Shown piece by piece: positions 12,601 through 24,000 of a stretch of DNA of 24,000 bases. The stretch spans positions 82,854-106,853 of the forward strand of contig JBBQUT010000008.1 of assembly GCA_038212215.1 (NCBI GenBank). The letters run 5' to 3'. The notes under the pieces were generated by a model. The model made no database searches and was not told the DNA's origin. It saw nothing but the letters and a program-made list of their open reading frames with translations. How positions within the stretch are numbered: the first letter of the stretch is position 1; each line of letters begins with the position of its first letter. Both the position numbers and the translations under genes were made by a program. The stretch comes from Mycobacteriales bacterium. Lineage in GTDB: Bacteria > Actinomycetota > Actinomycetes > Mycobacteriales > Jatrophihabitantaceae.

Positions 12601-13659
12601 TCAACAGATACGCGGCAGTTGCTCACCCAGCGGAATGTCGACGACCCTGGTCGCCCCGAACGCGGTACCGGCCACCACCATGCCTGGGTGCTCGTCGACG
12701 CAGGCGCCGATGATCGCTGCCTGCTGCCCGAGCGGATGTGCCCGCATTGCAGCCAATACCGCCTCGGCGTGCTCGGGCGCCACGATGGCGACGAGCTTGC
12801 CCTCGTTGGCGACATACATCGGATCGAGCCCGAGCATCGCGCAGGCATTCCCGACCTCCGGCGGCACCGGGATGGCGCGTTCGGTGAGGTGGACACCGAC
12901 CCCGGCGGCTTTCGCGATCTCGTTCAGCGAGGTCGCCAACCCGCCGCGCGTCGGATCGCGCAGCACGTGCAGGTCGGTCGTCACGCGCAAAAGATCGGCG
13001 ACCAGTGAGTGCAGCGGTGCGGTGTCGCTGAAGATCTGCGCCTCGAACTCGAGACCCTCGCGCACGCTCATGATCGCGATGCCGTGCTCGCCGATCGCGC
13101 CGCTTACGATCACGACATCTCCGGGACGCGCCCGCTCGGGCCGGATGTCAACTCCGTCGGGCACCAGCCCGATGCCAGCCGTGTTCACGTACACCTGATC
13201 GCCGTGACCGGCGTCGACGACCTTCGTGTCCCCGGTGACGACAGCAACCCCCGCCTGCACGGCAGCGGCGCCGAGGTCCTTGGCGACACGAGCGATCACC
13301 GCGAGGTCGGTGCCCTCCTCCAGTACGAATCCGCAGGAGAGATAAGCAGGAACCGCGCCGCTCATCGCAAGATCGTTGACGGTTCCGTTCACTGCCAGAT
13401 CGCCGATCGAGCCGCCCGGGAAGAACAGCGGTCGCACCACGAATGTGTCTGTGGAGAAAGCGATCCGGACGCCGCCGAGTCGCACGACGGCGGAGTCCGC
13501 GAGCCCGCCCGGAGCTGCACCGAATGCCGGCAGGAACAGGTTCTCGATGAGCTCCGCGGACAGCTGCCCGCCCCCGCCGTGACCCATGACCACGGTGGGG
13601 CTGTCGCGAAGCGGCGCCGGGCACGTCCACCCGTCGATGTCGAGCACGCTGTCAGCCAA
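12601..13659 (-). CDS. hypE: Hydrogenase maturation protein HypE (carbamoyl dehydratase)
   Basis: The AIR-synthase-like fold is indicated by [51 protein letters not shown] and [10 protein letters not shown], plus the diagnostic C-terminus PRIC. The listed start at 13659 is TTG, and GTG at 13647 is an alternative. The gene overlaps the hypD stop by 8 nt. Confidence 0.93.
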
Positions 13660-14767
13660 CGGGAGTCACCTCGCGCTGCGTGTTCAGCCGCCGATAGAGG
13701 TAGTACGCGGCGCAGGCACCTTCGCTGGACACCATGGTCGCGCCCAGCGGTTTGCGGGGCGTGCAGGTCGTGCCGAACGCGCTGCACTCGTGCGGCTTGA
13801 TCAGCCCCTGCAGCACCTCACCGCTGCGGCAGACGGAGGACTCCGCGGTGTGGATGTCGCTGACGTCGAAGCGGTACTCGGCGTCAAGGGCGCGATACTT
13901 CGCGGCTAATCGCCAACCGCTGTCGGGGATCGTGCCGATGCCGCGCCAGCCGCGGTCGGTGATCTCGAAGACGTCGTCGATCAGCTTGCGGGCGGCCAGG
14001 TTGCCCTCGGCGGTGACGGCACGCGGGTACGCGTTGTCGAGTCGCGCTTCACCGGCTTCGAGCTGGCGGACGGTGCGGCGAATACCTTCCAGGATGTCGA
14101 GCGGCTCGAATCCGGTGACAACGATCGGGATGCGGAATTTGTCGACGAGAGCGGGGTACTCCTCGATCCCCATCACGCTGCACACATGACCCGCGGCAAG
14201 GAATGCCTGCACGCGGCAACTGGGCGACTGCATGATCGCCTCGATCGCCGGGGGCACGCGCACGTGCGAGACGAGCATGCTGAAGTTCGCGATTGCGAGC
14301 CGGTTGGCCTGGTAGACCGCCATCGCATTCGGCGGCGCGGTGGTCTCGAAACCGATACCGAAGAAAACCACTTGTCGCTCAGGGTTCTCGCGGGCGATCT
14401 TCAACGCGTCCAGTGGCGAGTAGACAACACGCACGTCGCCGCCCTCGCTCTTGACGCGGAACAAATCCCGCTCGCTGCCGGGCACCCGCAGCATGTCGCC
14501 GAACGAGCAGAAGATCACGCCGGGACGGGAAGCGATCTCCAACGCCTTGTCGATCAGCGCCAGCGGCGTGACGCACACCGGGCAGCCCGGTCCGTGAATC
14601 ATCTCGACTTGATCGGGCAGTAGCTGGTCGATCCCGTGCCTGATGATGGAGTGCGTCTGCCCGCCGCACACCTCCATGATCGCCCAGGGCTTCGTCACCG
14701 TCCGGCGGATGTCGTCGAATAATCGCGCCGCAAGATCCGGGTCGCTGAACTCCTCGAGATACTTCAC
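13652..14767 (-). CDS. hypD: Hydrogenase maturation protein HypD ([4Fe-4S] scaffold), 371 aa
   Basis: The sequence contains [30 protein letters not shown] and a C-terminal Cys cluster, [26 protein letters not shown] shortened the start to GTG 14767 (VKYLEEF), which forms a GTGA overlap with the hypC stop. Confidence 0.93.
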
Positions 14768-15054
14768 CGCGGTGCCTCCTCGCCCGCCTCGGCCGCCGCC
14801 TGTGCCCACGCGTCGCCGAATTCTTTGTCTAGTTCACCGAGTTCGCGAAAGTGCGCGAGTGTGTCCATCGCCGACTGCTCATCCAAGCGCTGCAACGCGA
14901 ATCCGACGTGCACGATCGCGTACTCCCCCACCTGGATGTCGGGCACGAACTCGAGGCACACCTCCTTCTCGACACCGCCGAAGTCCACCGTCGCCATGCG
15001 GGTCTGGTCTTTCTCCCAGATCTCGCACACTCGGCCGGGAACGGCTAGGCACAT
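14764..15054 (-). CDS. hypC: HypC/HupF-family hydrogenase assembly chaperone (96 aa)
   Basis: The N-terminus MCLAVPGRV has the essential Cys2. The OB-fold signature is [21 protein letters not shown]. The gene overlaps the hypF 3' end by 10 nt. Confidence 0.92.
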
Positions 15055-17369
15055 GCGGTCCTCCTTGGGTCGTTATCGGTCGGGGTGATGCGTGCCGCGA
15101 CGGCCAATTGGCCGAGGGCGAGGCCCGCGTCGCTGGGCGGCACAAGTCGATGCCGCAACACCTGGAATCCCACCGCTGCCAGGCGATCCACGCACAACGT
15201 CGTGAGCACGGCGTTGAGGAACACACCGCCGGAGAGCGCGACGCGACTCAGCCCGGTGCGGTTGCGCACCGCCTGGGCCTGCGCGAGAACGAGGTCGGCG
15301 ACCGCGTGGTGGAAGCGTGCAGCGACAACGTCCTCGGCTACTCCGGCGAGGACGTCCGCAGCCGCCGACGCGATGACCGGTGCTGCATCAAAATTCTCCG
15401 AGAAAGACCTGTCGCCGAAGGAGTACGGCCGCCCGCACCGGTCGAGCGCGCCACGGGCCACTTCTTCGAAACGCATCGCAGCCTCCGCCTCGTAGTCGCA
15501 GCGGTGACACACGCCGGTCAGCGAGGACATCGCGTCGAACAGCCGGCCCATGCTCGAAGTCGGCGTGCAACCGAAGCCGGTATCGAGTTGCCGGGCCAGC
15601 ACGCGGCGTTCGACTGCCGACCCTGCGGCGACGCACGGCAACCGCTCATCCCACACGACACCGGCCGCCCGCAGGTGCGACAGCGCCATGCGCCAGGGGT
15701 TACGCACCCCCGCATCACCGCCGGGAAGGGCGACGTAGCCGAGATGGGCCACCCGCTGGTACCCGTCGTAGTCGGCGAGCAGCACCTCGCCACCCCATAC
15801 GGCCCCATCGTCGCCGTAACCGGTGCCGTCGAAAGCGAATCCGATCACCCGTGACGATCCGTCGAACCCGTTCTCGGCCAGCGCGGCGGCGATGTGCGCA
15901 TGGTGGTGCTGCACCGTTCGCAGTGGCAGCCCGCACGAGCGGGCCCAAGCGCTGCTGCGGAACGCTGGGTGGCGGTCGGCGACGACGACTTCGGGACGGA
16001 CCTGCGTCAGCGCCGCCAGATGCGTGGTCGCGGTCTCGAACGCCGCCAGAGTGGCGAGATCGTCCATGTCGCCGATGTGCGCGGACATCCAGGCGTAGCG
16101 GCCTTCACCCATGCAGAACGTGTTCTTCAGGTCGCCGCCGACCGCGAGTGCGGGCCGCACGGGTATGGGCATCGCAATCGGCATCGGCGCATATCCACGG
16201 GAGCGGCGCACCGGCAACGGCGCTTCGCCGGCCGGTCGCACGATCGAGTCGTCGCACGGCACGTGGATCGGGCGGTCGTGGCCGAGCCAAGCGTCCGCAA
16301 GCGGGGCCAACCTGGTGCGCGCTTCAGCATCGTCAATGACGATCGGCTCACCCGAGACGTTCCCGCTGGTCATCACCAGCACGCGTGGGCCCGGTGGATC
16401 CCCCGCGAGCCCGAACAGCAGCTGATGAACTGGGGTGTAGGCCAGCATGACACCGAGATCGGGATGCGCTGGGGCGACCGCTTCGGCCACGACGACGGGG
16501 TGGCGTTTGGGTAGCAGCACGACGGGCCGACGCGGGTCGTTGAGCTGCGCGCGTGCCTCCTCGGACACCAGCACGATCGACTGCGCGCAAGCCAGATCAG
16601 CGACCATCACGGCAAATGGCTTGTCGCCGCGGTCTTTGCGTTTGCGCAGCGACGACACGGCGGCGCCGTTCGTCGCGTCGCAGGCCAGGTGATAGCCGCC
16701 CAGGCCCTTTACTGCGACGACGGCACCTGCCGACAGCGCACGGCGGGTCTCGGCCATCGCAACCCCACCGTGGACGTCGGCTGCGCCGGGACGGTACAGG
16801 GTCAGGGTCGGCCCGCACTGCGGGCAGGCGACGGTCTGGGCGTGGAAGCGGCGGTCCGCGGGGTCGGCATACTCGCTCTCGCAGCGTTCGCACAACGGGA
16901 GATCTGCCATCGTGGTGGCCGGTCGGTCGTAGGGCAACGCACGCACGATGGTGAAGCGGGGCCCGCAATTGGTGCAACTGATGAACGGGTGGCGGTAGCG
17001 ACGGTCGTCGGGGTCCGCGAGTTCGGCAAGGCAATCGGCGCAGGTCGCGATGTCTGGTGACACCAGCGTTCGCCCGCTGCCGCCTTGCGATCCGGCGATG
17101 CTGAAGCCGGTGCCCCCGGCGCAGGCGATCACCTCATTCGTCGTGCGTTCCACCCGAGCGAGCGGTGGCGCGTCGGCGCACACGCGCGCGCCGAATTCCG
17201 CGAGCGCGACCGTGTCACCCTCGACCTCGATCGTGACCCCGGCGGCGGTATTGCCGACGGAACCGCTGAGTCCGAGTTCGCAGGCCAGGGCGTAGACGAA
17301 GGGGCGAAAGCCAACGCCCTGGACGACACCTTCCACCTGGACGCGAAGGCGCGCGCGCGTGCTGTTCAT
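15045..17369 (-). CDS. hypF: Carbamoyltransferase HypF (774 aa)
   Basis: The acylphosphatase-like N-terminus is VEGVVQGVGFRPFVY. There are two zinc-finger pairs, CADCLAEL...CTNCGPRFT and CERCESEY...CPQCGP. A YrdC-like domain (VAVKGLGGYHLACDA) and a Kae1-like C-terminal domain follow. Confidence 0.95.
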   Translation of the reverse strand: MNSTRARLRVQVEGVVQGVGFRPFVYALACELGLSGSVGNTAAGVTIEVEGDTVALAEFGARVCADAPPLARVERTTNEVIACAGGTGFSIAGSQGGSGRTLVSPDIATCADCLAELADPDDRRYRHPFISCTNCGPRFTIVRALPYDRPATTMADLPLCERCESEYADPADRRFHAQTVACPQCGPTLTLYRPGAADVHGGVAMAETRRALSAGAVVAVKGLGGYHLACDATNGAAVSSLRKRKDRGDKPFAVMVADLACAQSIVLVSEEARAQLNDPRRPVVLLPKRHPVVVAEAVAPAHPDLGVMLAYTPVHQLLFGLAGDPPGPRVLVMTSGNVSGEPIVIDDAEARTRLAPLADAWLGHDRPIHVPCDDSIVRPAGEAPLPVRRSRGYAPMPIAMPIPVRPALAVGGDLKNTFCMGEGRYAWMSAHIGDMDDLATLAAFETATTHLAALTQVRPEVVVADRHPAFRSSAWARSCGLPLRTVQHHHAHIAAALAENGFDGSSRVIGFAFDGTGYGDDGAVWGGEVLLADYDGYQRVAHLGYVALPGGDAGVRNPWRMALSHLRAAGVVWDERLPCVAAGSAVERRVLARQLDTGFGCTPTSSMGRLFDAMSSLTGVCHRCDYEAEAAMRFEEVARGALDRCGRPYSFGDRSFSENFDAAPVIASAAADVLAGVAEDVVAARFHHAVADLVLAQAQAVRNRTGLSRVALSGGVFLNAVLTTLCVDRLAAVGFQVLRHRLVPPSDAGLALGQLAVAARITPTDNDPRRTACA

Positions 17370-18121
17370 TGCGCCTGCTCGATGAGCACGGCGTTGGTGC
17401 GCGCCAGCTGCTCGGCACTGCGCGACTCAAGTTGCGCAAGCTGATCGGGGGTCAGGATGTCGCACACCCAGTCCCAGTGCATCGCGACGTGCGCACCGAC
17501 GGTGAGCGTGGCTCGGTCCTCGCCCAGCAAAGACACACTGCCGACTGACCACGCAGCATTCTGCTCGACCGGTTCGTCCAGAGCGAGCAGCCCGTCGCGC
17601 AGGACGAGCGGACGCGACCGGACGCGCACCCGCGTGCCTTCGACAGCGACAATCTGTCCCCACCTGATTCGGCACTGCTGCAGGATCGACACAGCTACAG
17701 CGACGTTGATTCCCTTGCGCAGCAGGCCGACCCATGGATAGACGACGAAGACCTGGAAGCTATGGTGCGCACTTCCGGGGCTCCAACTGGCACCGGGTTG
17801 GCCGGCGAAGCGCGCTTGCAATGTGGTCATCACGTCGCGGGGGGCGACGGCGTCGAGCAGGTCGTTGCCGATCCAGTACGCCTCCACCACCCGCGCGTCG
17901 AGCGGGTCGGCGATCCCGGTGCGGGCGGCGATGAGTTGAAGATAGGCCCAGGCGCCGTCGAAGTGGCGCGCGTGGTCGGCGATCTGCTCGTCGCCACGTA
18001 GTAGGAGCGAGGTGTCTCTCGGGCCGCAGTAGCCGAGTTCGTTGGGCGGATAGGCGTAGCGCGCGAACAGGCTCGCTCCCGTTATGGCTGTTCGGGCGCC
18101 GGCCAACTCGGTAGCGCTCAC
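17366..18121 (-). CDS. Conserved hydrogenase-cluster protein of unknown function (251 aa; I believe DUF6390-like, unverified) with a HypC-like C-terminal segment
   Basis: I shortened the start to GTG 18121 (VSATELAG), which forms GTGA with the upstream hypC-paralog stop. The 3' end forms ATGA with the hypF start. The N-terminus has ARYAYPPNELGYCGP. For the C-terminus see the finding on HypC-like similarity. Confidence 0.75.
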   Translation of the reverse strand: MSATELAGARTAITGASLFARYAYPPNELGYCGPRDTSLLLRGDEQIADHARHFDGAWAYLQLIAARTGIADPLDARVVEAYWIGNDLLDAVAPRDVMTTLQARFAGQPGASWSPGSAHHSFQVFVVYPWVGLLRKGINVAVAVSILQQCRIRWGQIVAVEGTRVRVRSRPLVLRDGLLALDEPVEQNAAWSVGSVSLLGEDRATLTVGAHVAMHWDWVCDILTPDQLAQLESRSAEQLARTNAVLIEQAQ

Positions 18122-18366
18122 TCCCTCGGCCGACCCATCATCTCCAGGCCGCTCAGCGCCGCTTCGGCCGCAGCCTCGTCGACGCATTCGACGACAAAGC
18201 CCATATGGATGATCACCCAGTCACCGGGTTTCAACGTCACCTGGTCCGCCTCGTCGAGCATCCCGATATTCACCCGACGCTGCGCACCGAGGACGTCCAC
18301 GAGCATCAGCTGATCGCCATAACCTTCGACTCGCGACAGCACGCGGCCGGGAATACCGAGACACAT
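18118..18366 (-). CDS. hypC: Second HypC/HupF-family chaperone paralog (82 aa)
   Basis: The sequence contains MCLGIPGRVLSRVEG...GDWVIIHMGFVVECVDEAAA. I shortened the start to ATG 18366, which is preceded by GGGGAGGG and lies 1 nt after the protease stop. Confidence 0.88.
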   Translation of the reverse strand: MCLGIPGRVLSRVEGYGDQLMLVDVLGAQRRVNIGMLDEADQVTLKPGDWVIIHMGFVVECVDEAAAEAALSGLEMMGRPRE

Positions 18367-22993: not shown

Positions 22994-24000
22994 TCGCCGG
23001 TGACGGACTGCGTGGGCGAATGCAGGGTCTGCAACGTCTTGCCTTCGCCGAGGTACATGTGCACGCCGCACGGCAGGCACGGATCGAAGCTGCGGACCGT
23101 GCGCATGATGTCGATTCCCTTGAAGTGCTCGCGATCGTTCTCCTCGAAGATCGGCTGACCCTGCACGGCGTCCTCGTAAGGGCCGGGTGTGCCATAGGAA
23201 TCGCGCGGGTTCGCATTCCACGGCGTCGGCGGATACGGATGGTAGTTGGCAATCTTGCCGTCGCGGATCACCATGTGGTGGCTGAGCACCCCGCGCACGG
23301 CCTCGGTGAAGCCGCAGCCGATTCCCTCGTCAGGAACTTCGAACGTTTCCCACGTCTTGGTCCGACCGGCACGAATCTCCACGAGCGCTTTCTCGGCGAA
23401 GTGCAACGCGCACGCCGCGGCGTAGGCCTGGAAGTAGGTGCGGGCCCGGTTGCGCTCGATGGTGTTGCTCCACTGCGGGATCTTCCATTCGAACTCGACC
23501 GGCGGCTTCAATGCGGTCTTCGGCAAGTTGATCTTGACGCTGCTGCCGGTCGACTTGACGTAGCCGATGTCGACCAAGCCGGCCAGCGCGGTCGTCCACA
23601 ATCTGGCGAGCGGGCCACCGCCTGTGTCGAGCGCGAGATAGTCCTTGCCGTCGTACCAGCGCGGCGACATCACCCAGCTGTACTTGTCGTCCAGGTTGCG
23701 CTTCTGCGGGCGGGGGTTCGTGTGCTGGTTCCACGGGTGGCGACGATCCACCGGATTGCCCAGCGGATCGGTCTTGACGAAGGTCTCCTGTCCTTCCCAG
23801 TCGTCGTAGTAGGAGCTGCCGAGCAGGATCCGGATGCCGAGGTTGATCTCCACCAGGTCCGTGGTGACCAGCTTGCCGTCAACGACGATGCCGGGGGTCA
23901 CGTACATCTTGCGACCCCACTGCGTCATGTCCTTGTAGTCGAAATTGCAATACTCCGGATCCTGGAATGACCCCCAACACGCAAGCAGCGTGCGGCGAAG
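22990..24000 (-). CDS. hhyL: [NiFe]-hydrogenase large subunit, group 1h/5 (Hhy-type); C-terminal 336 aa only, 5' end beyond the right edge
   Basis: The frame stays open upstream of the listed M at 23928 to position 24000 (...LRRTLLACWGSFQDPEYCNFDYKDMTQWGRK...). The C-terminal Ni-binding motif is RSFDPCLPCGVH, followed by a 22-aa tail. The genomic context is a protease, hyp genes and an HhyE-like gene. Confidence 0.9.
   Translation of the reverse strand, partial: LRRTLLACWGSFQDPEYCNFDYKDMTQWGRKMYVTPGIVVDGKLVTTDLVEINLGIRILLGSSYYDDWEGQETFVKTDPLGNPVDRRHPWNQHTNPRPQKRNLDDKYSWVMSPRWYDGKDYLALDTGGGPLARLWTTALAGLVDIGYVKSTGSSVKINLPKTALKPPVEFEWKIPQWSNTIERNRARTYFQAYAAACALHFAEKALVEIRAGRTKTWETFEVPDEGIGCGFTEAVRGVLSHHMVIRDGKIANYHPYPPTPWNANPRDSYGTPGPYEDAVQGQPIFEENDREHFKGIDIMRTVRSFDPCLPCGVHMYLGEGKTLQTLHSPTQSVTGE

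Follow-up and report, generated by a model that had tools for sequence, protein, structure and literature searches.

A gene on the minus strand of the 24,000-nt stretch analyzed here (the window: contig JBBQUT010000008.1, positions 82,854 to 106,853, from a Mycobacteriales bacterium) encodes a protein of the Pfam family DUF6390 within a [NiFe]-hydrogenase maturation operon. We found that this protein joins an all-helical N-terminal domain to a C-terminal beta-barrel resembling the maturation protein HypC, that a highly conserved cysteine lies where the two parts meet in the structure model, and that relatives carry the complete unit fused to several kinds of DNA-binding domain. Our overall reading, to which we assign a probability of about 0.5, is that the protein is a HypC partner that binds a ligand, probably a metal, through Cys and His residues and holds, senses or passes it on during maturation of the hydrogenase large subunit.

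An earlier reading made from the letters of the window (the sequence-only reading) had described the product as a 251-aa unknown protein. Its function is indeed unassigned, but it is no orphan: it matches PF19927 along its full length (profile positions 3-242 of 244, E=5.3e-83), scoring 278.7 bits against a gathering cut-off of 25. The family counts more than 4,700 homologues in a protein collection clustered at 90% identity and 1,058 clusters at 50% identity (E<=1e-3), and two members carry the Joint Genome Institute (JGI) name "hydrogenase maturation factor". Our literature search found no paper naming DUF6390, and in papers on Hhy/Huc accessory genes and Hhy maturation factors the DUF6390 protein goes undiscussed. 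DUF6390 is therefore best described as a catalogued but uncharacterized family, of which the window protein is a typical member.

A HypC-like barrel behind a helical domain

The gene and its parts map to the window as follows.

17366-18121, minus strand: DUF6390 gene, 251 codons, GTG start at 18121 and TGA at 17366
17675-18121, minus strand: N-terminal all-helical domain, residues 1-149, from structure models and conserved motifs
17366-17674, minus strand: C-terminal HypC-like module, residues 150-251, from Foldseek, hhalign and TIGR00074 matches in relatives
17672-17674, minus strand: Cys150 codon, TGC, read from the sequence; hhalign partner, HypC Cys2
17477-17479, minus strand: His215 codon, in HWDWVC220; hhalign partner, the conserved HypC His

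An AlphaFold2 model of the full-length protein, built on 40 homologues, reached a predicted local distance difference test score (pLDDT) of 90.7 and a predicted template modeling (TM) score of 0.88. In it, helices run as far as residue 150, the strands of a beta-barrel follow at 153-223 and a long helix spans 225-250, so that residues 153-250 are predicted to follow the HypC layout of an OB beta-barrel and then a C-terminal helix. A Foldseek search of the PDB returned OB-fold proteins only, with the HypC chains 3vyt_A, 3vys_A and 2z1c_B at the highest probabilities (1.00, 1.00 and 0.99, respectively). Their target-normalized TM scores were 0.79, 0.73 and 0.62, whereas most ribosomal matches stayed below 0.5 (one at 0.56); by Foldseek E-value (0.03-0.1), ribosomal S17/S11 ranked slightly ahead of HypC. 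The resemblance that the sequence-only reading had proposed for the C-terminal ~100 aa, and the comparison with HypC structures that it had suggested, are thus borne out at the level of the model.

We then compared profiles, aligning 93 diverse DUF6390 sequences (50%-identity cluster representatives) with 31 HypC sequences from actinobacteria that had been gathered by PF01455. Across modes, hhalign gave a probability of 45-53%, P=1.3-2.1e-4 and a score of 26-27 (best 27.4, P=1.3e-4). Column-shuffled controls (n=200) scored 9.0 +/- 2.1 with a maximum of 18.7, placing the real score about 9 standard deviations above them; a reversed alignment scored 11.0, and a decoy OB-fold profile, ribosomal protein S17, scored 12 (P=0.16). 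The core of the alignment pairs TVGAHVAMHWDWVCDIL (GDxVAlHWdWVCd) with vGDyVlVHaGFAi of HypC, and the extended and global alignments also pair QCRIRWGQIV with MCLAVPGRV, setting Cys150 on HypC Cys2 with the G-x-V of strand 1 in register. These are the two blocks that had been aligned by eye with the nearby HypC proteins, here recovered by a profile-profile alignment scoring above chance. In every mode, His215 falls on the conserved HypC histidine after the G-D-x-V motif, which we take to be His51 in E. coli HypC numbering.

Relatives of the window protein also match a curated HypC model, if weakly. In scans of 142 diverse members against the full set of 18,950 NCBIfam models (E<=1), TIGR00074 (hypC_hupF) was matched by 30, with a best E of 4.5e-5 and every match below the 48-bit cut-off; a second HypC model was matched by three, and no unrelated NCBIfam family by more than three. 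In one such member, P0520, residues 197-238 match profile positions 17-57 of TIGR00074. A search with the window protein's own C-terminus was negative: its last 104 residues gave no HypC match in Pfam and NCBIfam up to E=10. A profile search of solved-structure sequences returned noise only. In the reverse direction, a hidden Markov model (HMM) of the DUF6390 C-domain, run against 56,027 six-frame open reading frames (ORFs) of the genome, ranked HypC1 fourth (E=0.08) with a PRC-barrel protein ahead of it, weak support at best. The position of the cysteine differs as well: HypC begins M-C-[LIV]-[GA]-[LIV]-P, while the aligned cysteine here is residue 150, after a helix, in the motif Q-C-R-I-R-W-G. 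The relationship falls short of curated-model membership. Nevertheless, five lines of evidence (fold, Foldseek, hhalign, NCBIfam models and conservation) agree on a HypC-like C-terminus, and we regard the domain as very probably a divergent homologue of HypC. The claim that the cluster carries a third HypC-related unit is upheld by the fold, the hhalign signal and the TIGR00074 matches in relatives.

An internal cysteine behind a domain of ~150 aa had also been noted from the sequence, and homologues keep it. Cys150 is invariant in 40 close homologues and present in 89/93 (96%) of the 50%-identity representatives; the exceptions are mostly partial family matches, probably truncated or chimeric predictions. 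In the same diverse set, conservation is 97% for His120, 91% for Cys32, 90% for His215 and 84% for Cys220. The strongest motifs in the family's N-terminal domain are F-A-R-Y-A-Y-P-P-N-x-L-G-Y-C32-G-P, Y82-W83-x-G85 and H120. This domain has eleven helices in both the full-length model and a model of the domain alone (pLDDT 79.6), and a Foldseek search of the PDB with the domain alone found no fold match (best E=4.1). Residues 121-150 have a pLDDT of 93-96 in the full-length model and of 63-74 when the barrel is left out, a loss which suggests that the stretch from H120 to C150 packs against the barrel, fitting a domain interface there. Cys150 itself sits, in the model, at the joint between helical domain and barrel.

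DNA-binding fusions and genomic context

Among the longer members, the complete DUF6390 unit is fused to five DNA-binding families: PadR, ArsR, MarR, GntR and XRE. These fusions recur across assemblies. At 90% identity, an N-terminal PadR domain is found in 11 clusters or more and an N-terminal ArsR domain (HTH_20/HTH_5) in 10 or more; GntR and XRE (HTH_3) each occur at the N-terminus too, and MarR is found at the C-terminus of 17 members, including GenBank metagenome-assembled genomes with an uninterrupted frame of 419-420 codons. C32, H120, C150, H215 and C220 are kept in all helix-turn-helix (HTH) fusions examined. Wherever long contigs exist, the fusion genes lie within [NiFe]-hydrogenase operons, directly after hypC (80 nt downstream or overlapping) and directly before one or two SBP_bac_5 ATP-binding cassette (ABC) importers, whose closest NCBIfam model is NikA in three of five. 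By domain-architecture logic, recruitment by five unrelated DNA-binding families points to a ligand- or signal-binding domain, and, judged from sequence, such recurrent fusion appears to be the signature of a ligand-sensing module. This hallmark of a sensor domain, one domain joined to a variety of unrelated DNA-binding partners, is displayed by the relatives only; the window protein stands alone.

Other genes were observed around the fusions. The last gene of the first Nik/Opp-type importer operon, immediately before hypC and an ArsR-DUF6390 gene, encodes a protein of 200 aa that combines an FmdE domain with a zf-dskA_traR zinc finger and has no NCBIfam match (L108 7314-7916; L109 and L110 6853-7455). 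Upstream of a group 1h hydrogenase, a PadR-DUF6390 gene and a Nik/Opp-type binding-protein gene are separated by a 394-aa gene (L107 9121-10305) that matches nothing in Pfam or NCBIfam. An apparent HypF-DUF6390 fusion, the metagenomic P0319 (425 aa), consists of an N-terminal HypF fragment (zf-HYPF and partial YrdC) followed by DUF6390 from profile position 63; we judged it a probable assembly or gene-calling chimera because of that late start, a single cluster member and two short contigs. Long open frames around DUF6390 in high-GC genomes were likewise rejected as fusions, being merely stop-free.

In the window, the stand-alone gene is embedded among hyp genes.

18118-18366, minus strand: hypC1, a hypC paralog, 82 aa (PF01455, E=4.6e-18)
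15045-17369, minus strand: hypF, 774-aa ORF (tblastn match to HypF genes of relatives)
14764-15054, minus strand: hypC2, the canonical hypC, 96 aa (PF01455, E=5.7e-26; tblastn synteny)
13652-14809, minus strand: hypD, after hypC2 (tblastn synteny)
12601-13659, minus strand: hypE, after hypD (tblastn synteny)
G000:C8:109011-109337, 2.2 kb past window position 24000, plus strand: hypA (PF01155, E=3.7e-30)

The ORF and the two overlaps said to wedge it between a hypC paralog and hypF are present in the sequence: the hypC1 stop shares GTGA with the DUF6390 GTG start at 18118-18121, and the DUF6390 TGA shares ATGA with the hypF ATG at 17366-17369, an arrangement that predicts translational coupling to both neighbors. 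An in-frame ATG at 18187, upstream of the GTG, would add 22 residues; we prefer the GTG because homologues lack them. Pfam matches of the neighbors and tblastn synteny define a continuous minus-strand operon, in the order hhyL, NifU-Rieske (HhyE type), DUF5947, DUF6084, a ~500-aa unknown, HycI protease, HypC1, the DUF6390 gene, HypF, HypC2, HypD and HypE. Since hypA lies just outside, it is through an edge effect that the window lacks hypA/hypB. About 6.5 kb downstream of hypE, on the plus strand, an ORF at 5215-6048 matches Ni_hydr_CYTB (hydrogenase-type cytochrome b, E=3.9e-16) and is a candidate gene.

Across 401 Actinomycetota genomes, DUF6390 occurs in 19, in a single copy each. About 45 genomes have a group 1h-like large subunit (called with an HhyL fragment probe at >=62% identity), 11 of them with DUF6390; in 7-8 genomes with DUF6390, the only [NiFe]-hydrogenases are more distant ones. 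Beyond this sample, the family was seen in Chloroflexota, Dormibacterota and Sulfobacillus. As a rule DUF6390 comes after a hypC paralog, and in many unrelated genomes hypC lies directly upstream of DUF6390 or its HTH fusions: in the window, in G069, G108, G109, G210 and G349, and at L109-L112, L116 and L118. DUF6390 directly follows hypD in G178 and in a Huc-type cluster by Calvin-cycle genes on the M. intracellulare plasmid NZ_CP012886. The group-3-type clusters of G140, G346 and G371 read large subunit, protease, HypC, EamA permease, DUF6390; the intervening EamA/DMT-family permease is Pfam-confirmed at L065 8693-9637 and assigned by sequence resemblance and synteny only at L067 8618-9577 and L072 7367-8272. 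A Sulfobacillus acidophilus plasmid has hypFCDE, tatA, DUF6390 and hydA in a membrane-bound hydrogenase cluster, and a Chloroflexota-type relative with a stand-alone DUF6390 has hypA, hypB, hypC, DUF6390 and SBP_bac_5. By comparison, the M. smegmatis gene list has hypC (MSMEG_2712) directly adjoining hypF (MSMEG_2711) (PMC2799521).

Some copies stand apart from hydrogenase or hyp genes. At L111 7775-9431, a lone Chloroflexota-type HypC-DUF6390 pair lies by a convergent ferritin gene, far from hydrogenase genes on a 990-kb contig. In G017 (L070 7173-14059) and G190 (L058 4196-10357), DUF6390 is beside an ABC importer and not beside hyp genes; the importer comprises an SBP_bac_11 binding protein (best NCBIfam match a 2-aminoethylphosphonate binding protein, far below cut-off), a double-length permease and a TOBE-domain ATPase. 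G017 further has two CooC/MinD-type ATPases and a PadR gene next to DUF6390, and in one locus of the family an AhpC gene is a neighbor. From these varied hydrogenase contexts and the patchy presence, we conclude that DUF6390 is an optional accessory tied to hypC and not to one hydrogenase class. The distribution rules out an Hhy-specific factor, given the Huc-type, group-3-type and Sulfobacillus clusters and the 11 of ~45 group 1h genomes. A replacement for HypA is ruled out too, as hypA is present 2.2 kb beyond the end of the window and DUF6390 occurs alongside hypA/hypB in other clusters.

A proposed ligand-binding partner of HypC and alternative readings

In the reading that we favor, the helical domain would cover the barrel face through which HypC contacts HypD and the large subunit. 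Cys32, His120, Cys150 and His215, with Cys220 less strictly, stand out in the conservation of the family; they may share one ligand site where the domains meet, and a metal ion would be its most likely occupant. Nickel is a candidate because of the Nik-type importers and the hypA/hypB and CooC-type neighbors, and iron because of the HypC ancestry and the ferritin neighbor. The stand-alone protein would be a stoichiometric partner of HypC1, encoded just upstream, and the two would hold, sense or hand over the ligand during [NiFe]-hydrogenase biogenesis; in the fused forms, ligand occupancy would control hydrogenase and Nik-type transporter operons. More tentatively, and at less than even odds, the family may be a hitherto unrecognized metal-binding module for sensing and chaperoning, most likely of nickel or iron, that arose when a HypC barrel was capped by a new helical domain. 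The stand-alone form would then pair with a HypC paralog in the maturation of hydrogenases that oxidize hydrogen from air, and the fused forms, in Actinomycetota, Chloroflexota and Dormibacterota, would be regulators of a new class that tie the expression of hydrogenase and Nik-type uptake operons to metal supply or maturation state.

Several observations weigh against the ligand-binding reading. Similarity to HypC is sub-threshold everywhere in sequence comparisons, with an hhalign probability of just 45-53%: neither PF01455, the comparison that the sequence-only reading had proposed, nor TIGR00074 matches the window protein even at E<=10, and a HypC HMM run against the 56,027 ORFs did not retrieve the DUF6390 gene. 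The window protein has no DNA-binding domain, and its sensing role is carried over from relatives. None of the SBP_bac_5 proteins comes near the curated NikA cut-off, so that their nickel specificity is putative. Most sampled group 1h genomes lack DUF6390, and a search of a plasmid collection, which should include the C. necator megaplasmid, gave Mycobacterium and Sulfobacillus records only and no C. necator record; for these two reasons, DUF6390 is dispensable in general for the group 1h enzyme class.

The sequence-only reading had suggested a specialized chaperone or decoy in Fe-site assembly. The HypC fold and the placement of Cys150 and His215 on HypC ligand positions fit that suggestion, but the chaperone or decoy role is supported only in part, and the fusions shift the balance toward sensing or binding. 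In its explicit form, the HypC-like module would dock on HypD or the HhyL precursor as a dedicated carrier or competitive decoy for Fe(CN)2CO in aerobic maturation, much as aerobic hydrogen oxidizers have the extra HypC paralogs HupF/HoxL. The location of the gene is in keeping with this, between hypC and hypF in the window, directly after hypD in G178 and on the M. intracellulare plasmid, and confined, in most contexts examined, to the neighborhood of [NiFe]-hydrogenase or hyp genes. We nevertheless consider it rather unlikely: the cysteine is internal, the 149-residue domain is modeled as packing on the barrel, where it would probably block the HypC-type docking face, the operon already encodes two canonical HypC proteins, and recurrent fusion to five DNA-binding families is unexpected for a cofactor shuttle.

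Another reading is a thiol- or redox-based sensor or protector, whose cysteines would report oxygen or redox state and tune or shield maturation and, in the fused forms, operon transcription. MarR and PadR regulators are often redox or small-molecule responsive, the unit has three conserved cysteines, its hosts include aerobic soil lineages (Actinomycetota, Chloroflexota, Dormibacterota and Sulfobacillus), and AhpC is encoded next to it in one locus. Strictly conserved His120 and His215 alongside the cysteines suit a metal site better, however, and the neighborhood is mostly metal-related (Nik/Opp-type importers, hypA/hypB, CooC-type ATPases, ferritin and ArsR-type partner domains), which makes a redox role improbable. 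Least probable of all is that the C-terminus is a generic OB-like barrel that reached its shape by convergence, with no HypC ancestry. That no curated HypC model reaches its cut-off would accord with such an origin, as would the weak Foldseek E-values, with S17/S11 above HypC, and the PRC-barrel protein that the C-domain HMM ranks above HypC1. Against it, HypC has the top Foldseek probability and target-normalized TM score, the hhalign signal is HypC-specific, with none for the S17 profile, TIGR00074 is matched by 30/142 members and unrelated families by three at most, both functional HypC residues align and are conserved, and the genes are physically linked to hypC.

Relation to known systems and significance

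Canonical HypC/HybG/HupF proteins (PF01455, TIGR00074; 2z1c, 3vys, 3vyt) share with DUF6390 the OB beta-barrel and C-terminal helix, a location among hyp genes, a cysteine immediately before strand 1 and a histidine in the G-D-x-V-x-x-H strand. They differ in size, at 70-110 residues against 251 in the window protein, which no HypC model matches at its cut-off, and in their motif, M-C-L/I-G/A-I/V-P instead of C-R-I-R/S-W-G. The HypC ligand cysteine is a free N-terminus, whereas that of DUF6390 is internal, at 150, behind a 149-residue helical domain. The DUF6390 unit also occurs fused to DNA-binding domains; to our knowledge, canonical HypC does not. One-component metal sensors of the ArsR/SmtB and NikR types offer a second parallel, as DUF6390 relatives are fused to ArsR, PadR, MarR, GntR and XRE domains by Nik/Opp-type importer and hydrogenase genes, and the unit carries a conserved Cys/His set. 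Unlike these sensors, the window protein has no DNA-binding domain, and the putative sensor domain is unrelated to known metal-sensing domains.

A third group, HypC-like proteins that we call 'CITCSD', likewise has a HypC-derived module with an internal cysteine in similar actinobacterial hydrogenase clusters; unlike DUF6390, these proteins are picked up by PF01455 itself, if weakly (E 1e-6 to 1e-10); they show a CxxC motif and are without the helical domain. They were seen at L032-L035 (G021, G108, G036 and G059, respectively) and at L105 8070-8780 on the M. intracellulare plasmid NZ_CP012886, where the protein is annotated as a 236-aa HypC/HybG/HupF family protein. Their motif is C-[IV]-T-C-S-D-E-A-V-P/Q-V-R/T-V, then VHAKEAI, and in actinobacterial hydrogenase clusters the gene is always just upstream of a SIS-domain (GmhA-like) gene. 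Three of the four genomes have group 1h and no DUF6390; G108 has both.

Our literature search found no description of the relationship of DUF6390 to HypC, of a cap domain without a solved relative or of the regulator fusions. For the family, the analysis provides a structural identity, namely a HypC barrel that carries an internal cysteine under a helical cap, together with a likely partner in the upstream HypC paralog and a hypothesis of ligand binding by Cys and His residues, which would serve sensing in the fused forms. Should these fused forms be regulators that respond to metals, they would account for the co-control of hydrogenase and nickel-uptake genes in phyla for which we know of no such regulator. 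Group 1h and 2a [NiFe]-hydrogenases support soil bacteria on atmospheric hydrogen and are being developed as oxygen-insensitive catalysts, and which extra maturation factors they need is still open (PMC10657181, PMC6883350). If the stand-alone form of DUF6390 matters for maturation, it would be a candidate helper for the heterologous production of these hydrogenases.

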